Assembly (NCBI GenBank): GCA_945902805.1
Contig: CAMDMZ010000016.1
Span: 27,420 to 91,419 of the forward strand
Source: Propionivibrio dicarboxylicus
GTDB taxonomy: Bacteria; Pseudomonadota; Gammaproteobacteria; Burkholderiales; Rhodocyclaceae
Reading direction: 5' to 3'
DNA: 64,000 bases
In this document: positions 1,344 through 56,482 of the stretch, in pieces
How the letters are laid out: every line of letters starts with the position of its first letter
How positions within the stretch are numbered: position 1 is the stretch's first letter
The notes under the pieces: generated by a model
Told to the model about the DNA's origin: nothing
Database searches by the model: none
What the model saw: only the letters and a program-made list of their open reading frames with translations
Translations under genes and position numbers: made by a program

Positions 1344-1369
1344 CGCCGTCCCGCCAGCACCGACTTTTT
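1344..1369 (+). repeat. dispersed 26-nt repeat copy R1 (CGCCGTCCCGCCAGCACCGACTTTTT)
   Basis: Exact consensus. Lies between the convergent egtD stop and the senA-like stop; its T-run overlaps the TAA of the minus-strand gene. Confidence 0.85.
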
Positions 1370-5850: not shown

Positions 5851-5876
5851 CGCCGTGCCGTCAGAACCGACTTTTT
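5851..5876 (+). repeat. dispersed repeat copy R2 (3 mismatches)
   Basis: CGCCGTGCCGTCAGAACCGACTTTTT, 28 nt after the selD-fusion stop. Confidence 0.65.
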
Positions 5877-8399: not shown

Positions 8400-8912
8400 C
8401 TAGCGCGGCGTGATCGCTTGCAAAATGCCCTGCATCAAGACCAGCGGTGTGGGCGGACAGCCGGGGATGCGAACGTCGACGGGGATGACGTTTTCCACCG
8501 CGCCGCAGGTGGCGTAGTTCGGGCCGAACAAGGCGCCGACCTCACCGCAACCGCAGCCGCAATCACCCACCGCTACGACCAACTTGGGGTCGGGCGTGCA
8601 GTCGTAGACGATCTTCAGCGCGTTTTCCATGTTTTTGGTTACCGGCCCGGTGACCAGCAACATGTCGGCATGGCGCGGGCTGGCGACAAACTTGATGCCA
8701 CGCCCTTCGAGGTTGTAGTAGGGATTATTGAGCGCATGAATCTCCAGCTCGCAGCCGTTGCACGAACCGGCGTCGACCTGGCGGATGGTCAGAGCGCGGC
8801 CAAGGATAGTGAGAATTTCACCATGGAGGCGTTGGGTTTCGGCGGCGGGTATTTCCGGTACCGATTCTGTCACGATGCCGGTCTTGAAGATGCGTCTGAG
8901 CAGCGGAATCAC
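8400..8912 (-). CDS. NuoB/HycG-type small subunit of the Hyf/Ehr-like complex
   Basis: 170 aa with retained 4Fe-4S ligand motifs GSCNGCELE, GDCGCGCG and IPGCPP. ATGA overlap with the large-subunit stop. Confidence 0.85.
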   Translation of the reverse strand: MIPLLRRIFKTGIVTESVPEIPAAETQRLHGEILTILGRALTIRQVDAGSCNGCELEIHALNNPYYNLEGRGIKFVASPRHADMLLVTGPVTKNMENALKIVYDCTPDPKLVVAVGDCGCGCGEVGALFGPNYATCGAVENVIPVDVRIPGCPPTPLVLMQGILQAITPR

Positions 8913-10468
8913 AGGTCGGCCCCGCTATAGGAAAGATTGAACGACTTGTTGATGAGCGGGAAGTCGGGAACGATGTCGTTCATCACCGCATGTTCCAGCG
9001 CCGGCCAGCATTGCCAGGAGGGGTCGTGCGGATGCACGCGCGCCAGCTTGCCAACGGCATCGAATTCCAGGCCGACCAGCACTTCGCCACGCCAGCCTTC
9101 AATGACACCAAGGCCGGCACCCCCAGCCACCGGCGTGATCGTCGTCAGAATTTCGCCGGCCGGCATGCCGACCGCCATGGCGCGCAACAAGCGCAAGGAC
9201 TCGAAGATTTCGTCGAAACGCACCGCCACACGCGCCGCCACGTCGCCGCGCTCATCGGTAACCGGCCGCACGCCCAGCGCGGCATAGGGCGGTGGCGGCG
9301 TGTAATCCTGACGATATACCCGGCCATCGAGAATCATGCCGGTGGCGCGGGCGGCCATGCCGGTGAGCGAGAGTTCGTGGGCAAGGTCGGTATTGATGAT
9401 GCCGGTGGTGAGGAAGCGGTCTTGCAGACCGGCGTGATTGTCGTAGATGGCGCGCAGTTCGCTGACCTCGCGTGCGAATAGTTCGCATTGCTCGACCATG
9501 CGCGCCAGCGCTTCCGGCGCCAAATCGTGGCTGACGCCACCGGGCACGATGCGATCCATCATGAAGCGGTGGCCGAACAGATCGGCATTCAGGCGCAACC
9601 AGTCTTCCTTTAGACGCATGAATTGCGTCAGACCAAAGGCAAACGCGGCATCGTTGCCGAGCGCGCCGAGGTCGCCGAGATGATTGGCGACGCGCTCGCG
9701 CTCCAGCATCACGGCACGCAGCATGAGCGCGCGTGGTGATGGTGTAGCGCCGCACGCCGCTTCGACGGCCGCCGCATACGCCCAGGCATAAGCACAAGTG
9801 GAATCGCCGGAAATCCGCCCGATCAATTTCGCACCGGTCAAAAAGTCGGTGCTGGCGAGACGGTGCTCAACGCCCTTGTGCTGGTAACCGAGGCGTTGTT
9901 CCAGGCGCAACACGCGTTCTCCAACCACCGAGAAGCGGAAATGTCCGGGCTCAATGATACCGGCGTGGATCGGGCCGACCGGAATCTCGTGCGCGCCCTC
10001 TCCGCCGACCTTAACGAAGTCGTAGTCAGTGGGGGCATTGGTAAAGTCGGCATGATCGCCCGCATCATGGCGCAGCGGAAACCAATCGGCCGGCCAGCCG
10101 CCGTGGCGCAGCCAGGGGCGCTGGTCGGGACCATCGTGCCGGATGTCGAGCAAATCGAACGTGGCGCGCTGCATTCGGTTCGCGGCCGGGAAGATTCCCG
10201 ACAGATCGGGACACGTCGGATTTTCGGCAGGCAGATCGAGGCGCAACCACTGCCAGCCCTCGGTCAGCGCAAATACGCAGTGCAGGCGGAATCCGCCAGC
10301 TCGCTCGCGCTCATCGCTACCCCAAAGAGCCGACAATCGTCCCTGATGGCGGTGGACGGAAATGGCGTAGCGCAGCAGGTCTTCGCCATCAACCGCGCGG
10401 CCGTGCCAAACCGGCGCGCCCACCCCGGGCTGGGGAGTGAATTCGATGGGTTCGGCGTGGAAGCGCAT
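8909..10468 (-). CDS. NuoC-NuoD/HycE-type large subunit homologue lacking the Ni-Fe cysteine ligands
   Basis: Start set at ATG 10468 (MRFHAEPIEF), 2 nt after the upstream stop; the 628-aa track ORF is an extension. Shows GPIHAGIIEPGHFRF and LGYQHKGVEH. Reads GRISGDST where R-x-C-G-x-C is expected, and SFNLSYSGADL* where D-P-C-x-x-C is expected. Confidence 0.85.
   Translation of the reverse strand: MRFHAEPIEFTPQPGVGAPVWHGRAVDGEDLLRYAISVHRHQGRLSALWGSDERERAGGFRLHCVFALTEGWQWLRLDLPAENPTCPDLSGIFPAANRMQRATFDLLDIRHDGPDQRPWLRHGGWPADWFPLRHDAGDHADFTNAPTDYDFVKVGGEGAHEIPVGPIHAGIIEPGHFRFSVVGERVLRLEQRLGYQHKGVEHRLASTDFLTGAKLIGRISGDSTCAYAWAYAAAVEAACGATPSPRALMLRAVMLERERVANHLGDLGALGNDAAFAFGLTQFMRLKEDWLRLNADLFGHRFMMDRIVPGGVSHDLAPEALARMVEQCELFAREVSELRAIYDNHAGLQDRFLTTGIINTDLAHELSLTGMAARATGMILDGRVYRQDYTPPPPYAALGVRPVTDERGDVAARVAVRFDEIFESLRLLRAMAVGMPAGEILTTITPVAGGAGLGVIEGWRGEVLVGLEFDAVGKLARVHPHDPSWQCWPALEHAVMNDIVPDFPLINKSFNLSYSGADL
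9840..9866 (-). repeat. dispersed repeat copy R3, inside the large-subunit CDS
   Basis: AAAAAGTCGGTGCTGGCGAGACGGTGC on the plus strand (2 mismatches). Read in the gene sense as H-R-L-A-S-T-D-F-L. Confidence 0.75.
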
Positions 10469-10470
10469 CG

Positions 10471-11928
10471 CTAGCCCAGCATGCGCGCGGCTTCCTGGAA
10501 CCAGCGCGTCAGGTAAGGGGGAATGTAGAGCCCGAGCATCAGCACAATGGCCAGATGCAGGAACACTGGCGTGATGGCGGGTGCATGAGGCAAGCGCTTT
10601 GCCTCCGTCTCGCCGAACACCATGGGTTGCACCTTGCCGAATATTGCCGCGAAGGCGACGCCAAGCGCCAACAGCAGGAACGGCGTGGCCCAGGGATGAT
10701 GTTTCATGGCATGCGTCAGGATCATGAACTCGCTGGCGAAAACGCCGAATGGCGGCATGCCGAGAATCGCCAGCGTGCCCAGCATCAGGCCCCAACCGAT
10801 CAAGGGATTGACGTGTATCAGGCCGCGGATATCGTCCATCATTTGGGTGCCGGTTTTCTGCGTGGCATGGCCGACCGCGAAGAAGATGGCCGACTTGGTC
10901 AGCGAGTGCATAGTCATGTGCAGCAGGCCAGCGAAGTTGGCCACCGCACCGCCCATGCCGAAAGCGAAAGTGATCAGGCCCATGTGCTCGATGGAGGAAT
11001 AGGCAAACATGCGCTTGACGTCGCGCTGTCGCGAAAGAAAGAAGGCCGCCAGCAGCAGAGTGAACAAACCGAAGCCCATCATCAGGTTGCCAGCAAAGGC
11101 GCCCTCGATGGCACCGTCAGCGAGCACCTTGCAGCGCAGGATGGCGTACAGGGCGACATTGAGCAACAAACCAGAAAGCACGGCAGAAACCGGCGTCGGC
11201 CCCTCGGCGTGGGCGTCGGGCAGCCAGTTGTGCAGCGGCGCCAGGCCGACCTTGGTGCCATAGCCGACGAACAGAAAAATGAACGCCAGCGCCATGATAT
11301 TCGGCTCAAGAAAGGCCTTGACGTTGACCAGGTGCGTCCACAGCAAGGCGTTACCACTTTCACCCAGAATGCGTTCGGCGGCGAAGTACAGCAGGATGGT
11401 GCCGAACAGCGCCTGAGCGATACCAACGCCACAGAGGATGAAGTATTTCCAGGCCGCTTCCAGGCTGGCTGGCGTGCGGTAGAGCGATACCAATAGTACG
11501 GTGGTGAGTGTCGCCGCCTCCATCGCCACCCACAGAATGCCCATGTTGTTGGTGGTGAGCGCCACCAGCATGGTGAACATGAAGAGCTGGTACATGCTCT
11601 TGTAGAGCCGCAGGCGTGGAATGGTAAGGCGGCCGTGCGCGGCCTCGTTCTTCATGTAGGGGCCGGAAAAGATGCTGGTGGTGAGGCCGACAAACGCAGT
11701 CAAGGCGACAAAGAACACGTTGAGTGAATCGATGAAAAACTGCTCGCCAAAGGCAAAACGCGGGCCATCGGTAATGATGCTGATGGTCAGCCACACGGCG
11801 GCAATAAAGGTGCCGCCACTGGCAATGATGTTGAGATGAGGCGCCCAGTCGCGTTCGCCAAACACTGTCAGCAAGGCACCGCTGACGAGGGGAATGGCGA
11901 GCAGGATAACGAAGATATCGAACGTCAT
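10471..11928 (-). CDS. HyfF/NuoN-like antiporter-type membrane subunit
   Basis: 485-aa polytopic protein of the proton-conducting NuoM/N/Mrp family (WLPDAHAEGPTPVSA). ATGA overlap with the upstream gene. Confidence 0.8.
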   Translation of the reverse strand: MTFDIFVILLAIPLVSGALLTVFGERDWAPHLNIIASGGTFIAAVWLTISIITDGPRFAFGEQFFIDSLNVFFVALTAFVGLTTSIFSGPYMKNEAAHGRLTIPRLRLYKSMYQLFMFTMLVALTTNNMGILWVAMEAATLTTVLLVSLYRTPASLEAAWKYFILCGVGIAQALFGTILLYFAAERILGESGNALLWTHLVNVKAFLEPNIMALAFIFLFVGYGTKVGLAPLHNWLPDAHAEGPTPVSAVLSGLLLNVALYAILRCKVLADGAIEGAFAGNLMMGFGLFTLLLAAFFLSRQRDVKRMFAYSSIEHMGLITFAFGMGGAVANFAGLLHMTMHSLTKSAIFFAVGHATQKTGTQMMDDIRGLIHVNPLIGWGLMLGTLAILGMPPFGVFASEFMILTHAMKHHPWATPFLLLALGVAFAAIFGKVQPMVFGETEAKRLPHAPAITPVFLHLAIVLMLGLYIPPYLTRWFQEAARMLG

Positions 11929-12596
11929 CAGTTGTCCTTGAGGCGTTCCATGTGGTGGATGTCCAGGCTGTCGAACTGGTCGCGAATCTGGAAGAAGAAC
12001 ACACCGAGAATGAGCGCGCCGACCAGAACGTCCAGTGCGATTCCGAGTTCAACGACCATCGGCATGCCGTAAGTGGCGCTGGTGGCGGCGAGGAACAGAC
12101 CATTTTCCATCGACAGGAAGCCCACCACCTGGGAAATCGCCTTACGCCGCGTAATCATCATCAGGAAGGCGAGCATCACCACGGCCAGCGCAATACCCAA
12201 TGTGCCGCGCGTGATGGTGTGCGAAAGCTGCGAGATCGGCAAGGCGACATTGAAAGCAATGATGACCAGGCCGATGCCCACCAGCATGGTGGTCGGAATA
12301 TTGATCAGTGCCTCGACCTCGCCCTTGATTTGCAGGCGATGCATCAGCCGGTTGAGGATCCACGGTAGTAACAAGGCCTTCAACAGGAGCGTTAGCCCGG
12401 CCGACCAGTACAGGTGCGATTGGCCGGTGGTCACCGCCACCACGAGCGTGGATAGAAACAGCATGAAACCTTGCAGGGCAAACAGGTTGATGAGTTGCAT
12501 CACACGCCGTTGCGCCAGCATGGCGAAGGTCAGCAGCAGAATCACAGATGCGCATAAGTTGATGAGTTGCGCAGTGAGCGGGATAGTGGCGCTCAT
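11928..12596 (-). CDS. HyfE-like small membrane subunit
   Basis: 222-aa hydrophobic protein in the HyfE position. ATGA overlaps at both ends. Confidence 0.7.
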   Translation of the reverse strand: MSATIPLTAQLINLCASVILLLTFAMLAQRRVMQLINLFALQGFMLFLSTLVVAVTTGQSHLYWSAGLTLLLKALLLPWILNRLMHRLQIKGEVEALINIPTTMLVGIGLVIIAFNVALPISQLSHTITRGTLGIALAVVMLAFLMMITRRKAISQVVGFLSMENGLFLAATSATYGMPMVVELGIALDVLVGALILGVFFFQIRDQFDSLDIHHMERLKDN

Positions 12597-13549
12597 GCTT
12601 TCACCTCAAGCAGCAATCTGACCAGCAAGCCGAGAACAGCGAGTAGGAACGCGGTGCCGAGATACTCCGGGGCGCGGAAAATGCGCAGCTTGGCATTGAC
12701 CGTTTCGAGCAGAGCCAACAGGAAGCCACCCACCAGCAGCTTCAACACCAGCAGCGGAATTGCTGCCACCAGCGCCATGAAATTGTCGCGTTCGGCGATG
12801 CCCCAGGGCAGAAACAGAGCTAGCCCAAGACAGGAGTACGCATAGAGCTTGAGGCAGGCCGCCCATTCAATCAGCGCGAGATGGCGCCCTGAATATTCGA
12901 GGATCATGGCCTCGTGGATCATTGTCAGCTCAAGATGGGTGGCGGGGTTATCCACGGGCACGCGGGCATTTTCGGCGAAGGCGACGAAGGTGAAGGCGAT
13001 TCCGGCGAAGGCGAGACTGGGATAAATGATGAAGTCACGATGCGCAAGCGTCTCGACGATGGTCGCCACCGAGGTCGATTGAGCGATCATCGCCACGGTA
13101 AAGATGACCATCAGCAGCGCCGGTTCGGCGAGGAAGCCGATCAGCATTTCACGCCTGCCGCCGAGAGTGCCGAACGAGGTGCCGATATCCATTGCCGCCA
13201 AGGAAATGAATACCCGCGCTAGACCGAAGACACCGACCAGCGCCAACGCGTCCGCCGCCGGCGCCAGCGGCAGGTCGGTCGACAAGGTGGGAATGATGGC
13301 GCAGGCCAGCACCATGCAGCCGAAGACGACGAAAGGTGCAAAGCGAAACAGCGGTGATGCCGTTTCAGCCAGCACCACATCTTTGTTGAAAAGCTTGCGC
13401 AGCATGAAGTATGGCTGCCACAAGGGCGGCGCGGAACGACTTTGCAGCCAGGCCCGACACATGCCCAGCCAGCCCAACAGCAGCGGCGCCAGTACCAGCG
13501 CCAGAGCAATGGCGAAAGCTTGGCCGATCAAACCGGAAATACTGATCAC
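12593..13549 (-). CDS. HyfC/HycD/NuoH-like membrane subunit
   Basis: Start set at GTG 13549 (VISISGLIGQAFAIALAL...), overlapping the upstream TGA (GTGA). The 604-aa track ORF is an extension into the upstream gene. Confidence 0.75.
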   Translation of the reverse strand: MISISGLIGQAFAIALALVLAPLLLGWLGMCRAWLQSRSAPPLWQPYFMLRKLFNKDVVLAETASPLFRFAPFVVFGCMVLACAIIPTLSTDLPLAPAADALALVGVFGLARVFISLAAMDIGTSFGTLGGRREMLIGFLAEPALLMVIFTVAMIAQSTSVATIVETLAHRDFIIYPSLAFAGIAFTFVAFAENARVPVDNPATHLELTMIHEAMILEYSGRHLALIEWAACLKLYAYSCLGLALFLPWGIAERDNFMALVAAIPLLVLKLLVGGFLLALLETVNAKLRIFRAPEYLGTAFLLAVLGLLVRLLLEVKA

Positions 13550-15564
13550 GGTCGCGCCACCAACAGCAAGAGCAGCAGCGTGATGAAGCTGTACATCAGA
13601 TAGACCGCAATGCGACCGCCCTGCAAGGTGGTGATGCGCATCGAAAGCCAGGCGGCCAGGCGCGCAATTGGCAGATAAAGCCAATGCCAGAAATGATCCT
13701 CGACTTGAACGCTGTAATACGGTTCGCGATCGCGGGCAGTCGGTAAGTGGCGCTGCATACGGAACATCGGCTCGAAGATGCGGCGTATCGGCTGGCTGAA
13801 ACCTTCGGCCGTATCCTGCGCGCGCGGCCCTTGAAAATGGTACCCGCAATCCCACGCCGCTGAGCGTCGCCCACGACCATGGTAAAGGTGATGGACCAGC
13901 CAGCGCCCGAGCCAAACCGAGAGGACGATGGTCACCAGAAAGATAACCGACTCGTAACTGGCTCGTTCCGGCGAGATCGGCGCCAGCATCCACCAACCGT
14001 GGTCGCGCACATGTTCGGACAGCCCAGCGCCCAACAGCTGGCGGGTGGCCGCATCGATGCGCAGGATGACGGTTGCCGGCATGATGCCGAGCAACACCGT
14101 GATCAGGGCCAGCCAGACCAGTCCGGCCTTTTCCCAAACCCCGGCATCGTGGGCGTCCTTGAGCGAATCTTCGCGCATCTGACCAAGAAAGATGATGCCG
14201 TAGAACTTGACCATGGCGAAGCCGGCCAGCGCCGCGACCAGCGCCACTACAGCGGCGGCGACGGGAACGACCATGTTGAGCCAGGCATGCGGCAAACCCG
14301 GCGAAAAGAGAAAGCTCTGCAGCAACAGCCATTCGGACACAAAGCCGGAAAGTGGTGGCAAACCGGCACTGGCGATTACGCCGACCAAGGCCAGCCAGGC
14401 CACCCAAGGCATACGGTGAATCAAACCACCGAGTTTGCCCAGGCTACGTTCCTTGGTGGCATGCAACACCGAACCCGTGCAAAGGAAGAGCAGGCTTTTG
14501 AATCCGGCGTGGGCAAGGCAATGGTAGAAGACGGCGGTCAAGGCCAGCGCAGCCAGAGCCTCCATGCGGTAACTATGGAAGATCAGCGCCAGGCCAATAC
14601 CGATCGCCAGCAAGCCGATGTTTTCGATGGACGAATAGGCGAGCAGACGCTTCATGTCGGATTGCACGGTGGAATACAGCACACCGAACAGCGCGGTCGC
14701 CAGCCCGATCGCCAGCGCCACCACGCCCCACCACCAAATGGGTGTGCCAACCAGATCGAAGCTAACGCGCAGCAAGCCATAAATGGCGGTCTTCAGCATC
14801 ACGCCGCTCATCAACGCAGACACGGGCGACGGTGCCGCCGGATGCGCTTCTGGCAGCCAGACATGCAGCGGCAATAAACCGGCCTTGGCACCAAATCCCA
14901 CCAGCGCCAGCAAATAGGCGGCCGAGGACCAGAAGGGCGAAAGCTGCTGCGCCCGCATACCGGCGAAACTGTAGTCGCCACTGCCCCCGGCACCCCCCGT
15001 CATCACACCAAACGACAGCAAGATCGCAATCGCGCCAATATGGGCGATCAGCAGGTACAAGAATCCGGCGCGACGGATGGTCTCGTGACGATGATCGGTC
15101 GTCACCAGAAAGAAAGAAGACAAAGCCATGGTTTCCCAGGCCACCATGAACGCGTAGGCATCATCGGCCAGCAACACCAGCAACATACTGGCGAGAAAGA
15201 TGTGATATTCGAAACACAACAGACCCGGCGCGGTGCCTTCGCCCTGCCGAAAATAACCAGCAGCAAAGATCGAAATGCCGGCCGAGACAAAACCTAGCAG
15301 CGTCACGAAGATGGCGGAAAGGTTGTCGAGCCGCAGATGGAAAGGCAGATCGGGCAGGCCAATAACCAACACCGCAGTCTGCGACGTGGCACCGAGCGAA
15401 GCAAGGCCGACGATGCCCGCCAACACGCTGACCAGGGCACCCAGCGGAAACAGTGTCTTGGCGATGAAGCGGGTTTTGCGCGGCGCCATAAGCCCGGCCA
15501 GACCGAGAATCGCCCAGACACAGGCGGCAATCAGCAGGGTATCGATAGCGAGCAATGATGGCAT
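13546..15564 (-). CDS. HyfB/NuoL-like antiporter-type membrane subunit
   Basis: 672-aa polytopic protein with NuoL/Mrp motifs (LPLHVWLPEAHPAAPSPVSALMSG). Confidence 0.85.
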   Translation of the reverse strand: MPSLLAIDTLLIAACVWAILGLAGLMAPRKTRFIAKTLFPLGALVSVLAGIVGLASLGATSQTAVLVIGLPDLPFHLRLDNLSAIFVTLLGFVSAGISIFAAGYFRQGEGTAPGLLCFEYHIFLASMLLVLLADDAYAFMVAWETMALSSFFLVTTDHRHETIRRAGFLYLLIAHIGAIAILLSFGVMTGGAGGSGDYSFAGMRAQQLSPFWSSAAYLLALVGFGAKAGLLPLHVWLPEAHPAAPSPVSALMSGVMLKTAIYGLLRVSFDLVGTPIWWWGVVALAIGLATALFGVLYSTVQSDMKRLLAYSSIENIGLLAIGIGLALIFHSYRMEALAALALTAVFYHCLAHAGFKSLLFLCTGSVLHATKERSLGKLGGLIHRMPWVAWLALVGVIASAGLPPLSGFVSEWLLLQSFLFSPGLPHAWLNMVVPVAAAVVALVAALAGFAMVKFYGIIFLGQMREDSLKDAHDAGVWEKAGLVWLALITVLLGIMPATVILRIDAATRQLLGAGLSEHVRDHGWWMLAPISPERASYESVIFLVTIVLSVWLGRWLVHHLYHGRGRRSAAWDCGYHFQGPRAQDTAEGFSQPIRRIFEPMFRMQRHLPTARDREPYYSVQVEDHFWHWLYLPIARLAAWLSMRITTLQGGRIAVYLMYSFITLLLLLLVARP

Positions 15565-15612
15565 GGGTATCGCGAAGTACCGGGGGATCGGGGATCGTCC
15601 CAGTGCAGGCGT

Positions 15613-16680
15613 TCAGGAACCGGTTTTGGTCTTCGCGTTGGCCTTGACGTTGACGCTGTTCGCCGCCACAGAAACCCTGTTGCGGCCCGATTCCTTCGAG
15701 CGATAGAGCGCACCATCGGCTCGTTCGATAAGCTGCGCCGTGGTTTCTCCCGGAACAAAGCCAGCAACACCAATTGATATGGTGAGTTGCGCCAGTTCCT
15801 GGTTATTGTCGGTGCGGCGAATGCGGCTGGTTTCGACACTTTGCCGAATTTTTTCGGCGACACAAAGTGCGCCCTGAATCGCGGTGTAGGGCAAAAGAAT
15901 GACGAACTCCTCGCCACCGTAGCGCGCCGCCGTATCAATACCTTTGACGTTCTTCTTGAGAATCTGCCCCAGCGCCCGGATCACCTTGTCGCCGAACATG
16001 TGACCGTAGCTGTCATTGATGCGTTTGAAGTGATCAATGTCCGCCATCAGCAAACAGGGGCCGATCGTATCCGGGGTCAGCGCAGCCAGACATTCGTTGA
16101 TGGCAAGGTCAAAGCCGCGCCGGTTCGACAATCCAGTCAGCGCATCCACCAACGCATCTTCCCTGGCGCGCTCGACCTCATGGCGTAAGCGTTCAATCTC
16201 GTTCTGGCTTTCGTCGAGACGCGTCTTCAGAGTGCTGATCGCGCCTTGCATGTCGCGCGTATTGCCCAGCACCTCATCCACGTGCAGGCACGCTTCATCC
16301 TTTAACTCGGGGTGTGCCAGGCCGCCAGACCATTTCTCCAGCGAGTCACCGAATCGATTGGCCTGATCGCCGGCCGTCGCGGCAGACTGCGAAATATCGG
16401 CCAGGATTTCCTGGAATCCGGCGCTGATCCGGGTTGCTGAATCCTCGTCGAGTTGAGCTACGTACTGCTGAAACAGTTGGTGGGTCTGTGCATCATCAAG
16501 GCGCGCATTATTCTGGGTCAGTGCGTCCATGGCCAACTTGAGTGGCTTGTTGATCCCGGCTACGTACTCGTACCAGATCGCAAAGCTGATCGGATGCACA
16601 CCGGCAGCTTGTCTGGTCATCAAGGGGAGTGCCAAACGGAAATATTCACCGCATTGCTCTCGGCTATGCTGATATTTCAT
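15613..16680 (-). CDS. cytoplasmic diguanylate cyclase (GGDEF)
   Basis: 355 aa: N-terminal sensory and coiled-coil region, GGDEF domain with RYGGEEF. Ends 48 nt upstream of the HyfB-like start on the same strand. Confidence 0.85.
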   Translation of the reverse strand: MKYQHSREQCGEYFRLALPLMTRQAAGVHPISFAIWYEYVAGINKPLKLAMDALTQNNARLDDAQTHQLFQQYVAQLDEDSATRISAGFQEILADISQSAATAGDQANRFGDSLEKWSGGLAHPELKDEACLHVDEVLGNTRDMQGAISTLKTRLDESQNEIERLRHEVERAREDALVDALTGLSNRRGFDLAINECLAALTPDTIGPCLLMADIDHFKRINDSYGHMFGDKVIRALGQILKKNVKGIDTAARYGGEEFVILLPYTAIQGALCVAEKIRQSVETSRIRRTDNNQELAQLTISIGVAGFVPGETTAQLIERADGALYRSKESGRNRVSVAANSVNVKANAKTKTGS

Positions 16681-16987
16681 GTCGAACCGTCACGTTAAGA
16701 CTTACACCGCAAATATAGGAACTAAATGGTCGCAATCACCACGTTGGAGTACGCGTTGATTTGAATCTCCGGGCGAAAAGCCACTCCGAAAATGCAACAG
16801 GATTTTGGATTGTAGCTGCCTTTGGAGACATTGCTACCGGACACTTTGTCGATTTCTGTGCACCGACGATGGCTTCTTGGCCCTGCGAAACAGCGTTTTA
16901 GTCGAAATGTAAGCAATCCGCGTGAAAGTCGTCAAAATTGGACCAACCAGTCGTCGCTGCGGCTGACCAACAACGCCAGGAGTGTTC

Positions 16988-19144
16988 ATGTCGATGCGTA
17001 AATTGTTGCTGCTACTGATCTTTGTCCTCGTCGGCACTGCCTATGTGGCCTTTGACCTCGGCCAGTATCTTTCCCTGGCGGGGCTGAAAGCACAGCAATC
17101 CGCCATCGAATCCTATCGCCTCGCCAATCCCCTCTTGGCGGTCGTGATCTATTGCCTGATCTACGTAATGGTCACCGCACTCTCGCTCCCCGGCGCGGCG
17201 CTGATGACGCTGGCCGGGGGCGCGATATTCGGTTTTTGGTGGGGAACGCTGATCGTCTCGTTTGCTTCTTCGATTGGCGCCGCGCTGGCTTTTCTCGCTT
17301 CGCGCTTTCTGTTGCGCGATTGGGTCACGGCGCGCTTCGGTGAGCGTTTGCGCGCCATCGATGACGGTGTGCAGCGCGAAGGCGCCTTCTATCTCTTCAC
17401 CCTGCGCCTGGTCCCCGTGTTTCCCTTTTTCCTGGTGAATCTGCTGCTCGGCCTTACGGCGATGAAGGCGACCACGTTTTACTGGGTCAGCCAGATTGGG
17501 ATGCTGGCCGGCACTGCGGTGTACGTGAATGCCGGAACACAATTGGGCGGGATTGAATCCTTGTCCGGCATCGTCTCGCCGGGCTTACTGTTTTCGTTTG
17601 CCTTGTTGGGCGTGTTTCCCCTAGTGGCCAAAAAAATCGTGGCGGCGGTACGCTCCAATCAGATCTATGCCAAATGGCCGAAGCCGCGCCGCTTCGACCG
17701 CAACCTGATTGTCATCGGCGGCGGCAGCGCGGGACTGGTGACGGCGTACATCGCGGCGGCGGTCAAAGCCAAAGTCACGCTGATCGAGAAACACCGCCTT
17801 GGCGGCGATTGCCTGAATACCGGCTGCGTGCCCTCCAAAGCGCTGATTCGCTCTGCCAAGTTCCTGTCGCACCAGCAACGGGCGGAAGAATTCGGAATGC
17901 GCCGTCCCGCCAGCACCGACTTTTCGTTTGCTGAGGTGATGGAGCGGGTGCAGAAGGTGATCAAGACCATCGAGCCGCATGATTCGGTCGAGCGTTATAC
18001 CGCGCTCGGCGTCGATGTCATCGAAGGCACGGCAAAGATCGTCTCGCCGTGGCAGGTCGACGTCACCCGCCACGATGGTGCAACCGAAAGACTATCGACC
18101 CGCAGCATCGTCATCGCAGCGGGCGCAAGGCCCTTCGTGCCACCGATTCCTGGCCTTGAGGAAGTCGGCTATCTGACCTCGGACACCGTGTGGGCATTGC
18201 GCGAATTACCGCGCCGCCTGATCGTCCTCGGTGGCGGACCGATTGGAACCGAACTGACGCAAGCCTTTGCCCGCTTCGGTGCCCAGGTGACGCAAGTGGA
18301 AATGGCAGCGCGGATTTTGATCCGCGAAGACCCGGAGGTATCGAAACTGGTCACCCAACGCTTTCGTGCCGAAGGCATTGCTGTCCTGACGAATCACCGG
18401 GCCAAACAGTTTGTCGTCAACCATGGCGAGAAGATCCTGATCGCCGAGCATGCCGGAAGTGACGTTCGTATTCCCTTTGACGCGGTATTGGTGGCAGTCG
18501 GTCGCGTGGCCAATCTCACCGGCTACGGACTGGAAGGGATCGGCGTCACGGTGTCGCGTACGGTGACCACCAACCCTTTCCTGCAGACCAACTATCCCAA
18601 CATCTATGCCGCCGGGGATGTTGCCGGCCCTTTCCAGTTCACCCACACGGCGGCCCACCAGGCGTGGTATGCCACAGTCAACGCGCTGTTCGATCCGTTC
18701 AAAAAGTTCAAGGCCGATTACTCGGTGATTCCATGGGCGACCTTCGTCGAACCGGAAGTCGCGCGCGTCGGCCTTAACGAGCAGGAAGCCAAAGAGCAAG
18801 GCATTGCCTACGAAGTGAGTCGCTACAACATTGACGATCTTGACCGCGCGATTGCTGATAGCGAAGCGCACGGATTTATCAAGGTGCTGACCGTGCCAGG
18901 TAAGGACCGGATTCTCGGCGTCACCATTGTGGGCGAGCATGCCGGCGACCTGATCGCGGAGTACGTTCTGGCCATGAAACATGGCATCGGTCTGAACAAG
19001 ATACTCGGCACCATCCATATTTATCCGACGCTGGCCGAGGCGAACCAATATGTGGCCGGAGTCTGGAAGAAGGCACATGCGCCGGAACAATTACTGGTCT
19101 GGGTAGGGCGCTTTCATGCCTGGCGGCGCGGCGACGCCACATGA
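16988..19144 (+). CDS. DedA/TVP38-TMEM64 membrane domain fused to a class-I pyridine nucleotide-disulfide oxidoreductase
   Basis: The N-terminal ~230 aa are polytopic (SNARE-associated/DedA type). Then GGGSAGL FAD motif, redox CxxxxC GGDCLNTGCVPSK and a dimerisation domain. No MerA-type C-terminal Cys pair. ATG 16988 preferred (AGGAG 5 nt upstream). Confidence 0.8.
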   Translation: MSMRKLLLLLIFVLVGTAYVAFDLGQYLSLAGLKAQQSAIESYRLANPLLAVVIYCLIYVMVTALSLPGAALMTLAGGAIFGFWWGTLIVSFASSIGAALAFLASRFLLRDWVTARFGERLRAIDDGVQREGAFYLFTLRLVPVFPFFLVNLLLGLTAMKATTFYWVSQIGMLAGTAVYVNAGTQLGGIESLSGIVSPGLLFSFALLGVFPLVAKKIVAAVRSNQIYAKWPKPRRFDRNLIVIGGGSAGLVTAYIAAAVKAKVTLIEKHRLGGDCLNTGCVPSKALIRSAKFLSHQQRAEEFGMRRPASTDFSFAEVMERVQKVIKTIEPHDSVERYTALGVDVIEGTAKIVSPWQVDVTRHDGATERLSTRSIVIAAGARPFVPPIPGLEEVGYLTSDTVWALRELPRRLIVLGGGPIGTELTQAFARFGAQVTQVEMAARILIREDPEVSKLVTQRFRAEGIAVLTNHRAKQFVVNHGEKILIAEHAGSDVRIPFDAVLVAVGRVANLTGYGLEGIGVTVSRTVTTNPFLQTNYPNIYAAGDVAGPFQFTHTAAHQAWYATVNALFDPFKKFKADYSVIPWATFVEPEVARVGLNEQEAKEQGIAYEVSRYNIDDLDRAIADSEAHGFIKVLTVPGKDRILGVTIVGEHAGDLIAEYVLAMKHGIGLNKILGTIHIYPTLAEANQYVAGVWKKAHAPEQLLVWVGRFHAWRRGDAT
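17900..17924 (+). repeat. dispersed repeat copy R4, inside the DedA-reductase CDS
   Basis: CGCCGTCCCGCCAGCACCGACTTTT with no mismatch, translated R-R-P-A-S-T-D-F. Confidence 0.8.
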
Positions 19145-25225: not shown

Positions 25226-25250
25226 CGCCGTCCTACCAGCGCCGACTTTT
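25226..25250 (+). repeat. dispersed repeat copy R5
   Basis: CGCCGTCCTACCAGCGCCGACTTTT. The T-run abuts the pckG stop codon (CTA at 25251-25253). Confidence 0.8.
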
Positions 25251-30750: not shown

Positions 30751-30777
30751 AAAAAAGTCGGTGCTGGCGGGACGGCG
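30751..30777 (-). repeat. dispersed repeat copy R7
   Basis: Plus strand reads AAAAAAGTCGGTGCTGGCGGGACGGCG (exact consensus, reversed), 7 nt after the PBP stop. Confidence 0.85.
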
Positions 30778-42160: not shown

Positions 42161-42787
42161 TTATTTCTCACGACGGAGTTGTTGTTGGCTATCGGCGATC
42201 GCGCTTTGCAGGTAGGAGCCGTAAAAATCGGCCAGGCGAAAACCGACAATGGATTCAGCCAGATTGGCCCCATCCGGGCCGTGGAACATCACGGTCGGGG
42301 CGAAGCGCGCTTTCATGTCACGTGAAAAGTCGGCGCTGGTGGTACGGCGGCCCTGGAAATCGATCATCGGTGTGGTGCGGTCCATATGCAGTTCGCGAAT
42401 CACGGCCGGGGTCGCTGGGTCACGCGACAGCGGGCCAAGGTGCTCGCGCCGCACGCGTTCGCACCAGTTACAGTCATCGCGACTGTAAAGCACCAGCAGT
42501 GGCACGCCGCGCGCACCGGCCAACTTGGCATCGGCGGCAAGGTCGCGGGCTTCCGTGAGACTGCTTTGAGTCGCCGGGCGGGTCGCCAGATTCGGCGTCT
42601 GCGCCATCGCCGGGGCGGCGGCCAAGGCCGTGGCACATGCTAGAATTCCCAGTGAAATTCGGCCTAAACCTTTGCTGTGCCAAGCTTTCCGGCCGGTTGT
42701 CCGTTTCAAGTTCGTGCTGTACAGCATGCTCTGCCGCGAGGTCTTGCCAATGTGCGCACTCTTATCCATTTCCTGCTCCCTGCCCAA
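42161..42787 (-). CDS. secreted thioredoxin-fold protein (CxxC)
   Basis: Signal-like [15 protein letters not shown], then [17 protein letters not shown] (CNWC). Start uncertain (42787, 42769 or 42727). Confidence 0.6.
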
Positions 42788-45656: not shown

Positions 45657-46838
45657 GTGCGCGCAATTTTCTGGCTCCTGCTGCTCGCTGTCGTCGCCGT
45701 CGTCACCGCAATGGCCGCGAAGTACAATGTTGGCTATGTGCTGCTGGTGCTGCCACCCTGGCGGGCCGAGTTGTCACATAACTTTTTTATCTTGTTAATT
45801 GTTGCCCTGTTTGCCGTGATGTATGGCTTTTTGCGCGTCTTGCGGCACACCATCAACCTACCGCGCTCGGTTGCCGCTTTTCGCCAGGAGCGCACGCGGA
45901 ATAAGGCGACAGACGAAGTGCAACAGACCAATCGTCTGCTGACCGAAGGGCGCTACGGCCACGCCTTACGCAGCGCCGAGCGCGCGTGGCCACAACTCGT
46001 TGAATCGAAGTTGCAAGCCGGCGTGCTGGCATTGGCCGCCTGGCGTGCCGCCCATGCCCTACACAATCCGGAACAGGTCGCTATCTGGCATGAACGGGTG
46101 AAACAGGCAGGCGACGATCTCGACCCCGCGCGCTTGATGACCGAAGCCACACTGGCCCTCGATGAGCGACGTTTTGATGACGCCCTTGCGGCGCTGCAAT
46201 CCTTGTCGGGGCGAGGCGGCAAGCATATCGCCGCACTGCGCCTGCAGCTAAAAGCCGAGCAAGGACTGGGTAACTGGACCGAGGTAGCGCGCCTGGTGCG
46301 GCAACTGGAGAAAGCGAAGGCTTTAACAGCGGACCAAGCGCTTCCCCTGCGGCAGCGTGCGCTGCGCGAAACCCTGCGCGGACTGTACGAAGATCTGCCG
46401 AAACTACAACGGTACTGGCGCGACCTCGATGCCAGCGACCGCAGTTCGCCACCAATCGCCCTCGAAGCCGCGCGCGCTTTTGCCGCCGCCGATGATTGCC
46501 GTGAAGCGCAGCGGATCATTGAGGATGCGCTGGAGGACAACTGGGATTCGACGCTGGCTCTGGCCTACGCCGAATGCCATGGCGGCGATGTGCTGGGGCG
46601 TATTGCCCGTGCTGAAAAATGGCTGAGCCAGCACCCGCGCGACGACGCCCTCTTGCTTGGTCTCGGGCGCCTGTGTCGCGAACAGCAGTTGTGGGGCAAG
46701 GCACGCAGTTTCTTCGAAGCGTCGCTGGCGATTCTGCCAACGCATGCTGCACATGTCGAACTGGCGGCGCTGCTCGAAGAGCTCCAAGAGTCGGTGCTGG
46801 CGGGACGGCACTATCGCGCTGCCGCGCTGCTCAAGTAG
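45657..46838 (+). CDS. hemY: HemY-family TPR membrane protein
   Basis: 393 aa, GTG start. Two N-terminal TM helices and a TPR-like C-terminus. Confidence 0.75.
   Translation: MRAIFWLLLLAVVAVVTAMAAKYNVGYVLLVLPPWRAELSHNFFILLIVALFAVMYGFLRVLRHTINLPRSVAAFRQERTRNKATDEVQQTNRLLTEGRYGHALRSAERAWPQLVESKLQAGVLALAAWRAAHALHNPEQVAIWHERVKQAGDDLDPARLMTEATLALDERRFDDALAALQSLSGRGGKHIAALRLQLKAEQGLGNWTEVARLVRQLEKAKALTADQALPLRQRALRETLRGLYEDLPKLQRYWRDLDASDRSSPPIALEAARAFAAADDCREAQRIIEDALEDNWDSTLALAYAECHGGDVLGRIARAEKWLSQHPRDDALLLGLGRLCREQQLWGKARSFFEASLAILPTHAAHVELAALLEELQESVLAGRHYRAAALLK
46786..46810 (-). repeat. dispersed repeat copy R9, inside hemY
   Basis: Plus strand reads AAGAGTCGGTGCTGGCGGGACGGCA, translated in hemY as Q-E-S-V-L-A-G-R-H. 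Confidence 0.75.
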
Positions 46839-51472: not shown

Positions 51473-51499
51473 AAAAAAGTCGGTGCTGGCAGGACGGCG
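51473..51499 (-). repeat. dispersed repeat copy R10
   Basis: Plus strand reads AAAAAAGTCGGTGCTGGCAGGACGGCG, between the hemF stop and the FIST start. Confidence 0.85.
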
Positions 51500-52465: not shown

Positions 52466-52970
52466 CGGACAAGGTCATGGCAAGGACTTTTTCGCTCTGG
52501 CGAGTGCGGAAATCATTGAGCTTCTGTGCCAGATCGCGGCCGAGTTCGTCGTTGGCGGTGGCGATGATGGCGATGGCAGTGAGTGCGGCATTGGCGGCAC
52601 CCGCTTCACCGATGGCGAAGGTGGCGACGGGGATGCCTTTGGGCATTTGCACGATCGAGAGCAAGGAGTCGAGGCCGTTCAGATGCTTCGACGGCACGGG
52701 CACGCCAAGCACCGGGACGATGGTTTTGGCCGCCAGCATGCCGGGCAGATGGGCGGCACCGCCGGCGCCGGCAATGATGGCGCGCAGGTCGCGTTCCTGC
52801 GCCACGGCGGCGTAGTCGAACAGCAGGTCGGGCGTGCGATGGGCGGAGACGACCTTGGCCTCGTAAGGCACGCCGAATTCCTTGAGCATGGCGGCGGCGG
52901 CCTGCATGATGGGCCAGTCGGAATCCGAGCCCATGACGATACCTACCAAGGGGCGACCTGATGGCTTCAC
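52458..52970 (-). CDS. purE: 5-(carboxyamino)imidazole ribonucleotide mutase
   Basis: 170 aa, GTG start overlapping the folD stop (GTGA). Motifs [27 protein letters not shown]. Confidence 0.9.
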
Positions 52971-53830
52971 TTGAGCGTCCTTTCCGCCGATTCCATGGTG
53001 TTGGTGAGCAACATGGTGATGGTCATCGGGCCGACACCGCCGGGTACCGGCGTGATGAGACCGGCGACGTCTTTCGCGGTTTCGAAGTCCACGTCACCGC
53101 ACAGCTTGCCGGCATTCGGTCCACTGGCGAAACGATTCATGCCGACATCGATCACCGTCGCGCCGGGCTTGATCATGTCGCCGGTAATCATGCGTTCCTT
53201 GCCCACGGCGGCGACCAGAATATCGGCGCGGCGGGTGTGGAAAGCCAGATCCTTCGACCGCGAATGGCAAATCGTGACCGTGGCGCTTTGCGCTAGCAGC
53301 AGCATGGCCATCGGCTTGCCAACAATATTACTGCGGCCGACTACCACGGCTTCGGCGCCGGCAATCTTGACGCCTTCACTCTCCAGCATCTTCATCACGC
53401 CGTAGGGCGTGCAGGGAATGAAACGCGGATTCCCCTGCATCAGCGCGCCGACGTTCTCGGCGTGGAATCCGTCCACGTCCTTGGCGGGTGAAATTGCCTC
53501 GAGCACCGCCTCGGAATCAAAGTGCTTGGGCAAGGGCAGTTGCACGAGGATGCCATGCACACTGGCATCGGCATTCAGCTCGGCGATCTTGGCGAATACG
53601 ACCGCCGGTTCGACATCGGTCGGGTACACGAACTTCAACGAACGCATGCCGGTCTTTTCGCAGCCGGCCACCTTGTTGCGCACATAGACGGCGGAAGCCG
53701 GATCTTCGCCGACCAGAAGCACCGCCAGGCAGGGCGTCACGCCGCGTTCTTTCAGGGCAGCGGCACGTTCCGCCAGACCACCACGCACGCTTGCCGACAG
53801 GGCGACGCCATCGATAATCCGCGCCGTCAT
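52967..53830 (-). CDS. folD: bifunctional methylenetetrahydrofolate dehydrogenase/cyclohydrolase
   Basis: 287 aa. Motifs [34 protein letters not shown]. Confidence 0.9.
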
Positions 53831-53847
53831 GCCAGCACCGACTTTTT
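53822..53847 (+). repeat. dispersed repeat copy R11, straddling the iorB stop and folD start
   Basis: CGCCGTCATGCCAGCACCGACTTTTT. The minus strand reads ...E-K-K-S-V-L-A-stop for iorB, and the folD ATG lies in the same ATGA. Confidence 0.8.
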
Positions 53848-54453
53848 CTCGTGCGCGGCGGCGGCATCGGCCGACCGACCGGCTTCGAAGGCACGACGAT
53901 TGAGTTCGACCATTTGCGGTTTGCGCGCGCGGAAGCGTTTGAGAATCGATTCCAGCAGGACCTCGGAAGGAAACGGCAGATGGTCGGCCATGGCGCCGAG
54001 CATGACGGTGTTGCCTAGGCGCACATCGCCCAGATCCATCGCAATTTCCATGGCGTCGAAGGCGTGCACCTCGAATCCACGGGCGCGAATTTCAGCCAGT
54101 GGATCGTCCGGATAGTCGTAAAGACCGATATCGACCACCGGCGGCACCAGGCGCGCGGTATTCATCAGCACCAGGCTGCCGGGCTTCAGGTAGTGGCACC
54201 AGCGCAGGGTTTCGGCGGATTCAAAACCGACCAGCAGATCGGCCGTGCCGGCCATGATTTGCGGCGAGAGCACCTTGGGGCCAAAACGCAGATGCGAAGA
54301 AACCACACCGCCACGTTGCGCCATACCGGCAACTTCGGTTTTCTTGACATCGTGACCGAGCGCGATGGCGGCTTCTGCCAGAATCTCGGTGGCGGTCATG
54401 ACGCCCTGGCCGCCGATGCCGACGACGAGAATGTTGGTGATGTTATCTGTCAT
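53827..54453 (-). CDS. iorB: indolepyruvate:ferredoxin oxidoreductase beta subunit
   Basis: 208 aa. N-terminal [12 protein letters not shown] pattern of the 2-oxoacid:Fd oxidoreductase gamma-type domain. Confidence 0.8.
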
Positions 54454-56455: not shown

Positions 56456-56482
56456 AGAAAGTCGGTTCTGGTGGGACGGCGC
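56456..56482 (-). repeat. dispersed repeat copy R12 (degenerate)
   Basis: Plus strand reads AGAAAGTCGGTTCTGGTGGGACGGCGC, in the iorA / radical-SAM divergent spacer. Confidence 0.6.

Follow-up and report, generated by a model that had tools for sequence, protein, structure and literature searches.

A 25-bp word shared by unrelated genes in a Rhodocyclaceae genome, and its possible role as a DNA uptake tag

How do two unrelated conserved enzymes, encoded on opposite strands, come to share a run of nearly identical nucleotides that is translated in the same sense and phase? The question is raised by two sites, referred to here as R3 and R4, in a 64,000-nucleotide stretch of a Propionivibrio dicarboxylicus genome (contig CAMDMZ010000016.1, positions 27,420 to 91,419; hereafter the window). 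An earlier reading of the DNA letters and open reading frames (the sequence-only reading) had pointed out that both sites encode A-S-T-D-F, and our data agree. R3 (9841..9865, minus strand, CACCGTCTCGCCAGCACCGACTTTT) is read as H-R-L-A-S-T-D-F-(L) and R4 (17900..17924, plus strand, CGCCGTCCCGCCAGCACCGACTTTT) as R-R-P-A-S-T-D-F-(S), with 23 of 25 bases identical and the codons CGT xxC GCC AGC ACC GAC TTT common to both; the translations are VEHRLASTDFLTG in ORF 8909-10468(-) and GMRRPASTDFSFA in ORF 16982-19144(+). Domain matches likewise upheld the proposed gene identities, an Ehr-like large subunit and a DedA-reductase fusion. The gene that carries R3 (8909..10468, minus strand) is a NuoC-NuoD / energy-converting-hydrogenase-related large-subunit gene containing Complex1_30kDa (PF00329) and Complex1_49kDa (PF00346), and its Ni-Fe cysteines are gone (RISGDST vs RVCGICG in the true [NiFe] hydrogenase relatives at loci L048 and L049). 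The gene that carries R4 (16982..19144, plus strand) fuses a DedA/VTT membrane domain (PF09335) to a pyridine-nucleotide disulfide oxidoreductase (Pyr_redox_2, PF07992, within which R4 lies, and Pyr_redox_dim, PF02852), and full-length orthologues are present in 9 relatives.

We found that both sites are copies of a non-palindromic 25-mer, CGCCGTCCCGCCAGCACCGACTTTT, which R4 matches perfectly and R3 with 2 mismatches. The 4.86-Mb genome contains 847 copies, 15 of them in the window; 111 copies are exact, and the count reaches 847 at five or fewer mismatches, where it plateaus. With genes called by a home-made hexamer caller, 529 copies (62%) are coding and 276 lie outside genes. Since the same 25-mer recurs this often, including outside genes, the near-identity of R3 and R4 arises at the level of DNA and not from protein constraint, as had been argued. 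A 15-mer core has 9 matches in the window at no more than 1 mismatch, compared to 0 in 100 shuffles. Genome-wide, the core has 231 forward and 251 reverse matches, compared to 0 for the reversed control pattern.

The word is 25 bp long, carries approximately 40 bits of information and has sharp edges, with conservation dropping abruptly on either side. Its layout is CGCCGT-CCCGCCAGC-ACCGACTTT(T), in which two near-invariant arms (positions 1-6 and 17-24, 93-100% conserved) enclose a laxer middle (57-98%). Two positions are polymorphic, C/T at 8 and A/G at 16, both common variants being transitions. Variant positions are essentially independent, and the word therefore lacks subfamily structure. 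We found no hairpin in the word, as its folding free energy of 0 to -2 kcal/mol is no better than that of shuffled sequence. If such a word is read in the cell, the reader might be a nucleic-acid guide, i.e., a small RNA or DNA complementary to it, rather than a protein, and a guide would explain the 25-nt length and the sharp edges. A guide would suit the strong, almost even conservation along the 25 nt and its abrupt ends, and one guide complementary to the written strand could pair by wobble with both variants at each polymorphic position (C/T at 8, A/G at 16). Transitions are the commonest mutations anyway, which weakens the wobble argument, and the dialect of genome G011 (CGCCGT-N9-ACTGACTTT, 441 copies genome-wide) has a weakly conserved 9-nt middle, more in line with a pair of half-sites contacted by protein than with an unbroken duplex. 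We consider a guide improbable.

The sequence-only reading had left open whether the element inserts into coding DNA, and our data indicate that a 25-nt insertion occurred at neither site. At R3, the blocks HKGIE and RLAGRISGDST are conserved, and the word has taken the place of the variable 9-codon loop that separates them. Aligned with the 17 closest orthologous loci, the site shows no gap, one being needed only by two distant true-hydrogenase homologues, and the word is absent from this site in all 17. Orthologues encode K-R-F-E-x-M-x-L here, and the nearest relative has a different base at 13 of 27 positions. At R4, word-free orthologues encode R-x-A-S/T-A-D/E-F, one codon shorter, and a distant orthologue already matches 15 of 24 bases; genome G019, which belongs to another genus, has a copy in its own dialect (TGCCGTCGCGCCAGCGCCGAGTTTT) at the same site. 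R4 thus grew from a proto-site with an ancestral A-S-A-D/E-F peptide and gained one extra codon. The prospect that distant orthologues share both the peptide and much of its nucleotide sequence, which would have made the sequence ancestral, was thus borne out in part at R4 and failed at R3. That A-S-T-D-F is ancestral or convergent, with the nucleotide identity being incidental, draws on the R4 orthologues and is refuted as a general explanation by the dissimilar R3 orthologues and by the abundance of the 25-mer outside genes. We give it practically no credence beyond the proto-site component of R4. A further 50-odd orthologous comparisons, sampled from two genomes at 400 kb each, show a partner that either aligns without a gap or differs by indels of 1-11 nt, and no insertion of 24-27 nt was found at these approximately 50 sites.

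The accompanying idea that only one frame is tolerated was overturned. All six frames of the word are stop-free, and four are common among the 529 coding copies (207/162/77/59/16/8; chi-square p = 1e-76). KVGAGGTA (antisense, 207) and AVPPAPTF (162) are both more frequent than the A-S-T-D-F frame, which at 77 of 529 (14.6%) comes third, and the pattern holds with high-scoring genes alone. Codon usage alone would give the RRPASTDF frame a share of 0.43, yet the observed share is 0.146, and therefore peptide tolerance sets the frame. The chance that two random coding copies agree in sense and frame is 0.28; the agreement between R3 and R4 is a coincidence, aided at R4 by the ancestral A-S-A-D/E-F peptide. 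A third coding copy in the window (42325..42349, minus strand), missed in the sequence-only reading, has the sense and frame of R3 and R4, reading RRTTSADFS in a small thioredoxin-like ORF (42161-42625), while a fourth (46786..46810, minus strand) is read antisense as QESVLAGRH near the 3' end of a HemY-like gene (45657-46838). Coding copies are enriched towards gene ends. Word sites fall on poorly conserved residues, with R3 in a variable loop, in the two genes where residue conservation was looked at directly.

Single copies prefer positions shortly past stop codons, at a median of 27 nt. Within the window, perfect copies lie between the ends of two convergent genes at 1344..1368 (plus strand) and again at 30753..30777 (minus strand), and a 2-mismatch variant at a gene junction (53822..53846, plus strand) has both a stop and a start inside it. 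Intergenic copies are found at 51475..51499 (minus strand, 1 mismatch), 63751..63775 (plus strand, 35 nt past a stop codon) and 5851..5875 (plus strand, 3 mismatches), and the window scan added degenerate copies starting at 25226, 27240 and 37579 (plus strand) and at 56457 and 59948 (minus strand). Genome-wide, copies are evenly spaced (CV of 0.717 vs 0.978 +/- 0.033 under random placement), and pairs less than 500 bp apart number 11 where 74 are expected. Only 3 pairs are closer than 300 bp, and no inverted pairs that could act as terminators were found. Forward and reverse copies are about equally frequent in every genome, and orientation shows no bias relative to local GC skew (Fisher p = 0.53). 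In DNA below 55% GC the density is 0.3-0.5 copies per 10 kb, approximately 4-6 times lower than the 1.9-2.6 copies per 10 kb seen above 57% GC. The longest stretches without a copy correspond to a prophage (RepB primase, 5-hmdU DNA kinase domain), a DUF927/DUF3854 mobile element and polysaccharide islands.

Many copies, some of them inside conserved enzymes, are also what insertions of a miniature mobile element (REP/RAYT, MITE or Rickettsia-palindromic-element type) would leave if they survived only in frame. REP/BIME elements with RAYT transposases and Rickettsia palindromic elements are likewise dispersed repeats that may be translated within unrelated proteins, but they are palindromic, length-adding and clustered, whereas the word has no hairpin, adds no length and is regularly spaced. 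Insertion is contradicted by the ungapped R3 site and the lack of any 24-27-nt length difference in the orthologous comparisons, by the lack of a hairpin or terminal inverted repeats, by over-dispersed rather than clustered copies, by the absence of subfamilies and by dialect bases that shift in step at old orthologous sites (see below). We therefore regard it as very improbable.

Within 301 genomes of the family, 7 genera stand out in that each of their sampled species has 40-480 copies of the core; elsewhere the count is 0-12. With the dialect of g12 included, the word is found at high copy number in all sampled species of at least 8 of the 89 sampled Rhodocyclaceae genera, the named carriers being Sulfuritalea, Rugosibacter and Sterolibacteriaceae MAGs. 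The dialect of G019 is TGCCGTCCYGCCAGCGCCGA[C/G]TTT, and about half of the alignable sites are common to G000 and G019. Of the shared sites, 13 align without gaps: 12 of these have C in G000 and T in G019 at position 1, and 10 differ as A versus G at position 16. Over the same 13 sites, not one difference appears in 104 comparisons of the core bases GCCG (positions 2-5) and CCGA (positions 17-20), while the flanks have diverged by 27%. Dialect bases thus differ in step at shared orthologous sites.

The remaining possibility raised at the outset, that a DNA motif is maintained inside genes as are uptake sequences, fits every statistic that we computed. Together, these statistics amount to the hallmarks of DNA uptake sequences that computation can reveal, and such sequences are known only from Neisseriaceae and Pasteurellaceae. 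The word is built in place by base substitutions, and at times a small indel, at sites where the surrounding sequence permits it, which are just 3' of genes and, inside genes, in variable loops and at gene ends. Protein tolerance determines the frame occupied, with Gly/Ala/Pro-rich readings dominating and RRPASTDF in the minority. Once built, the word is kept, and it is re-spelled genome-wide in step when the dialect of a lineage shifts; such keeping and concerted re-spelling require a sequence-specific reader on DNA. We infer, tentatively and at rather less than even confidence, that this reader most likely belongs to the DNA-uptake/transformation machinery. The word would then be a 'self' tag that enhances uptake, spreading through biased uptake and homologous recombination (molecular drive) in the manner of those in Neisseriaceae and Pasteurellaceae. 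The explanation as a whole, with R3 and R4 as ordinary members of a genome-wide, substitution-built word that is a putative uptake tag, falls in our judgement just short of an even chance.

We found ComEC, DprA and type IV prepilins to be present. ComEC occurs in 40 of 41 relatives, and its presence is therefore merely permissive. Canonical small ComEA (TIGR00426 above cut-off) is present in 15 of 41 relatives, and the TIGR00426 search did not detect it in the word-bearing genomes G000, G001, G002, G011 and G019. In these five genomes the search gave only a sub-threshold match, in a frame of approximately 800 amino acids that we take to be Tex-like, and in G011 no match at all. No ComP-like pilin was recognisable, since the candidates match only generic pilin models and generic PilA/PilE/MshA structures, and one unusual pilin is present in 33 of 41 genomes and so is not specific to word-bearers. 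The failure to detect canonical ComEA in word-bearing genomes is also in keeping with an alternative in which the word binds a chromosome-organising or other DNA-transaction protein unrelated to uptake (nucleoid structuring, repair/condensin loading or a nuclease self-marker) under selection for regular spacing. Even spacing, conservation of sites between genera and two conserved arms approximately 1.5 helical turns apart around a looser middle are consistent with such a protein. It is biased uptake with recombination, however, that predicts depletion from prophage and islands and genome-wide dialect shifts, and the word lacks the orientation and replichore bias of Chi and KOPS-type signals. 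To our knowledge, no architectural site family places approximately 850 copies, many in coding sequence, at a cost to proteins. We consider this alternative unlikely, though the most serious of those weighed here.

Uptake sequences offer the closest comparison to the word. The DNA uptake sequence (DUS) of Neisseriaceae is a 12-mer, AT-GCCGTCTGAA, with dialects, and its reader is the minor pilin ComP; Neisseriaceae and the host of the word are both betaproteobacteria of the same GTDB order. DUS resembles the word in having hundreds of copies, equally in both orientations and both in and between genes, and in its frame bias, substitution origin and lineage dialects. The left arm GCCGTC equals what we take to be DUS bases 1-6, and TGCCGTCT of the G019 dialect matches 8 bases of AT-DUS as we presume it, which is a lead rather than a test. 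In contrast to the 10-12 bp of DUS, the word is bipartite and 25 bp long; it lacks the CTG core, with GTCCCG or GTCTCG where DUS has GTCTGA, and its bearers have neither a recognised ComP-like pilin nor a detected canonical ComEA. Many DUS and USS form inverted terminator pairs, unlike the word. The uptake signal sequence (USS) of Pasteurellaceae has a 9-bp core, AAGTGCGGT, with AT-rich flanking segments, approximately 29 bp in all. It resembles the word as an evenly spaced, extended multi-segment motif of similar total length that falls on poorly conserved residues, is missing from recently acquired genes and has two sub-types across genera, whereas the word is GC-rich with a T-run end, is highly informative over all 25 bp (in G000) and belongs to an unrelated family. 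At 25 bp and approximately 40 bits, the word is much longer than the USS and DUS cores (9-12 bp). The highly iterated palindromes of cyanobacteria, HIP1 (GCGATCGC) among them, are also hyper-abundant short words kept in genes, but HIP1 is an 8-bp palindrome while the word is long and asymmetric. Chi and KOPS-type signals are over-represented words read by DNA-processing enzymes, yet these 8-mers have a strong leading-strand skew, which the word lacks. The coding share of the word, 62%, compares to 65% for USS in Haemophilus influenzae, and USS and DUS have been reported to be biased in frame, to favour residues of low conservation and to be lacking from recently gained genes (PMC2817400).

Sequence-biased DNA uptake has been documented in only two bacterial families (bioRxiv 10.1101/2025.10.24.684340), and we found no paper on uptake or transformation in this clade. 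We suggest, with considerable doubt, that a subset of Rhodocyclaceae (Sulfuritalea-, Rugosibacter- and Sterolibacteriaceae-type) might have a third, undescribed uptake or self-recognition signal system, comprising a 25-bp bipartite word with dialects, whose reader would be neither a recognisable ComP nor dependent on canonical ComEA and whose left arm may share ancestry with the DUS of Neisseriaceae. Wastewater and freshwater Rhodocyclaceae are environmentally dominant, and a third system, if true, would bear on how 'self' tags evolve, on the constraints they impose on proteins and on how gene flow is channelled in these communities. Shared ancestry of the left arm would make uptake-signal systems older and wider in betaproteobacteria than now thought. 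For the proteins of the host, 529 sites are partly dictated by a DNA word, 77 of them giving unrelated proteins a peptide of the R-R-x-A-S-[AT]-D-F type, and the word accounts for these puzzling identical peptides. It also distinguishes resident from recently acquired DNA and could act as a taxonomic or binning signature for MAG-rich lineages.

The repeat unit is a non-palindromic 25-mer, CGCCGTCCCGCCAGCACCGACTTTT (hereafter the word), with conservation at background level directly beyond both edges. Across the whole genome (4.86 Mb, 129 contigs, 58.4% GC) we found 111 exact copies and 847 with five or fewer mismatches, at which point the count levels off. The window, located at C16:27420-91419, contains 15 of these, and a 15-base core with at most one mismatch occurs there nine times compared to none in 100 shuffles. 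Positions 1-6 (CGCCGT) and 17-24 (CCGACTTT) are 93-100% conserved, and the middle is looser, with C or T at position 8 and A or G at position 16. Since variants at separate positions are essentially independent of one another, the copies show no subfamily structure; such structure is expected of copy lineages of the transposable-element type, and that candidate was rejected. The idea of a hairpin or REP element was dropped as well, because the word formed no hairpin on folding.

The sequence-only reading had singled out two copies that share an A-S-T-D-F frame, and proposed either that the element inserts into coding DNA with only this frame tolerated or that a DNA motif is kept inside genes. 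Sequence readout and ORF translation confirm the positions and the shared sense and codon phase of both copies: R3 (CACCGTCTCGCCAGCACCGACTTTT, 9841-9865, minus strand) is read as ...GVEHRLASTDFLTGAK... by ORF 8909-10468 (minus), and R4 (CGCCGTCCCGCCAGCACCGACTTTT, 17900-17924, plus strand) as ...FGMRRPASTDFSFAEV... by ORF 16982-19144 (plus). The gene identities were upheld by Pfam. The first product is a hydrogenase-related Complex1_30kDa/49kDa fusion (NuoC-NuoD) with RISGDST at the position of RVCGICG in the true [NiFe] hydrogenase homologues of relatives, and the second joins a VTT/DedA domain to a pyridine-nucleotide disulfide oxidoreductase, with R4 located within the Pyr_redox_2 domain. 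A third coding copy, not listed with these two in the earlier reading, lies at 42325-42349 (minus) in ORF 42161-42625 and encodes RRTTSADFS in the same sense and frame. Elsewhere in the window, a two-mismatch variant (…CGTCATGCC…) at 53822-53846 straddles the junction of the overlapping genes 52967-53830 and 53827-54453 and includes both the stop of one and the start of the other.

The genome-wide tabulation of frames that had been suggested alongside these proposals was carried out on 4140 genes (85% coding), called with our own iterated hexamer caller, which chooses start codons and recovers the expected genes of the window. Of the 847 copies, 529 are contained entirely within genes, another 42 cross a gene end, and the remaining 276 are intergenic, so that 33% of copies fall in the 15% of the genome that is intergenic. 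The word consensus is stop-free in all six frames, and the coding copies are distributed over x-K-V-G-A-G-G-T-A (antisense, 207), A-V-P-P-A-P-T-F (sense, 162), R-R-P-A-S-T-D-F (sense, the frame of R3 and R4, 77), K-S-V-L-A-G-R-R (antisense, 59), P-S-R-Q-H-R-L (sense, 16), and K-S-R-C-W-R-D-G (antisense, 8), a distribution that is the same when restricted to high-scoring genes. Codon usage alone predicts that RRPASTDF should be the commonest frame (0.43), while it accounts for 14.6% of coding copies; the frame bias therefore reflects the peptides that proteins tolerate, namely those with small flexible residues. Degeneracy is also greater among RRPASTDF-frame copies, with 2.7 mismatches compared to 1.5-1.9 in the two main frames. 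Two coding copies drawn at random agree in sense and frame with a probability of 0.28. Because the copy at 42325-42349 also uses it, the A-S-[TA]-D-F frame is found in three of the four coding copies of the window, for which the post-hoc probability is approximately 0.011; the genome comprises approximately 76 window-equivalents, and about one window with three such copies in four is expected. Given this expectation and the frame counts, we reject the claim that only this frame is tolerated, and the shared frame of R3 and R4 is an ordinary coincidence.

Alignment of orthologues, suggested earlier as a way to separate insertion from replacement, gave an ungapped replacement at R3 and a largely ancestral peptide at R4. 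Among loci of relatives, the 17 closest orthologues are ungapped across the R3 site, and a gap is needed only in two distant true-hydrogenase homologues. R3 fills a variable nine-codon loop, flanked by invariant HKGIE and RLAGR[IV]SGDST blocks, that reads K-R-F-E-x-M-x-L-x-E-G in most relatives; none of the relatives, word-rich genomes included, carries the word at this site, and the nearest of these orthologues differs at 13 of 27 bases. At R4, each of the eleven homologues in the comparison has one residue fewer, and full-length orthologues encode G-x-R-x-A-S/T-A-D/E-F-x-F, which indicates that the R4 peptide is largely ancestral; an orthologue from a different family already agrees at 15 of 24 bases. 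In G019, a word-bearing genome of a different genus, the orthologue has TGCCGTCGCGCCAGCGCCGAGTTTT at this site, which is the G019 genome's own spelling of the word. We compared about 50 further orthologous sites using 400 kb each from G019 and G011, another word-bearing genome of the family. Word-free partners at these sites were ungapped or had indels of 1-11 nt, and a length difference of 24-27 nt was found at none of them. Our data therefore indicate that the word was written over resident sequence, and with R3 ungapped and no such length differences, insertion into coding DNA is not borne out. The mobile-element and protein-constraint explanations are both effectively excluded.

Along the chromosome, copies are far more even than chance (spacing CV of 0.717 compared to 0.978 +/- 0.033 for random placement), only 11 neighbour pairs lie less than 500 bp apart where 74 are expected, and no inverted pairs of the word were found. 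Copies are balanced between the two orientations, which show no relation to GC skew (p = 0.53); a replication-oriented signal is thereby ruled out. Intergenic density is 0.62 per kb in convergent spacers, 0.43 in tandem spacers, and 0.29 in divergent spacers; intergenic copies prefer the 3' side of genes (median of 27 nt past the stop codon) and show no orientation preference. Word density is approximately four- to six-fold lower below 55% GC than above 57% GC. The longest word-free intervals are a DUF927/DUF3854 mobile-element contig, low-GC polysaccharide-synthesis islands, and, outside the window, a 31-kb interval (C3:92809-123889) with a prophage-like replication module. One product of this module is a RepB-primase/AAA_25 protein; a second has a 5-hmdU DNA kinase helical domain, which suggests a phage with hypermodified thymidine.

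A survey of 301 family genomes set seven genera apart, in which each sampled species has 40-480 copies of the core; genomes outside them have 0-12. Forward and reverse matches are about equally frequent, and a reversed control pattern gave at most one match per strand in any genome. Public MAGs that carry the exact 25-mer bear the names Sulfuritalea, Rugosibacter, Sterolibacteriaceae, Rhodocyclaceae, and 'Methyloversatilis'. Small clusters in family genomes otherwise without the word (five copies on one strand within 41 kb at G124:C1:1461274-1502266, and 7-12 copies in G091, G095, and G052) may have been acquired as islands from donors that bear the word. The word is further present in 105 IMG/VR stretches, mostly singly per contig and uninformative on function. 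One IMG/VR stretch (L161, IMGVR_UViG_3300009945_000063) has a 316-nt tandem repeat at 629-2123 (4.7 copies, 91% identity) with one word copy in each unit, and the N-terminus of an ORF approximately 1.4 kb away resembles an integron-type integrase by eye.

The word is spelled differently in different lineages. An ends-only pattern, AAAGTC-N12-ACGGCG, has 441 copies in G011, which is without the core, and four in G019, which has it. Direct logos gave CGCCGT-N9(weakly conserved)-ACTGACTTT(T) for G011, the reverse complement of which is AGTCAGTC-N8-ACGGCG, and TGCCGTCCYGCCAGCGCCGA[C/G]TTT for G019; the word is therefore bipartite and spelled lineage by lineage. Approximately half of alignable sites are shared between P. 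dicarboxylicus and G019 (13/23 in one direction and 14-16/28 in the other), and few with G011 (2/22 and 2/27). Of 13 sites shared without a gap, 12 have C at position 1 in P. dicarboxylicus and T in G019, and 10 have A and G, respectively, at position 16; positions 2-5 and 17-20 show 0/104 differences, although flanking sequence has diverged by 27%. Thus, old sites have been re-spelled in step within each genome with their cores kept unchanged, which needs a genome-wide, sequence-specific force and would not result from common descent of inserted copies. The left arm (word positions 2-7, GCCGTC) equals the first six bases of the Neisseriaceae DNA uptake sequence (DUS), GCCGTCTGAA, and the G019 spelling TGCCGTCT is identical to eight bases of AT-DUS. 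The identity may reflect chance or common ancestry.

Known uptake sequences combine high copy number, strand symmetry, and even spacing with a frame bias inside genes, placement at poorly conserved residues, absence from recently acquired DNA, and clade-restricted dialects (Findlay and Redfield 2009, PMC2817400; Helsem et al. 2025 preprint). The word shares with DUS and with the USS of Pasteurellaceae its copy number, strand symmetry, even spacing, frame bias, depletion from acquired DNA, and clade dialects. Because these properties have all been described for uptake sequences, we rate an uptake-enhancing 'self' word as the most likely reading, tentatively and at somewhat less than an even chance; such a word would spread by biased uptake and recombination. 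We infer the steps that lead from a word maintained at the DNA level to uptake. The same properties support that half of the sequence-only reading in which a DNA motif is maintained inside genes, while its other half, insertion with a single tolerated frame, did not hold.

The candidate machinery counts in part against uptake. ComEC is present, as it is in 40 of 41 relatives, and is only permissive; DprA and many prepilins are also present. Approximately 19 of 24 extracted prepilin-signature matches look like real prepilins or pseudopilins, and no ComP-like pilin was recognisable among them, with only generic pilin matches in NCBIfam and PDB comparisons. Two 93%-identical prepilin-like genes on separate small contigs (C101:5149-5883, 244 aa; C111:4006-4713, 235 aa) were considered as a word-specific reader and rejected, since 33 of 41 relatives carry homologues. 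A canonical small ComEA (TIGR00426 above cut-off) was detected in none of the five word-bearers examined, namely P. dicarboxylicus, G001, G002, G011, and G019, which also weighs against uptake, compared to 8 of 20 other family genomes, a difference that is not significant (approximately 0.12, hand calculation); across relatives, 15 of 41 have a detectable one. Among the word-bearers, four have only a sub-threshold TIGR00426 match in a frame of approximately 800 aa that is probably Tex-like, and G011 has no match; the PF12836 match sits in a 795-aa frame, and, judged from its length, this frame is probably Tex-like. The length of the word is also more than double that of the DUS or the USS core, and the word does not form terminator pairs. 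The main rival, which we consider less likely, is a DNA-binding, architectural, or self-marking site with no role in uptake; a reader guided by a nucleic acid is a speculative variant.

The carriers listed by Helsem et al. (2025 preprint) are Neisseriaceae and Pasteurellaceae only, and our literature search found neither a match to the letters of the word nor a link of 'uptake sequence' with Rhodocyclaceae taxa. The word is apparently an unpublished system that resembles uptake sequences and is unusual in its length and architecture.
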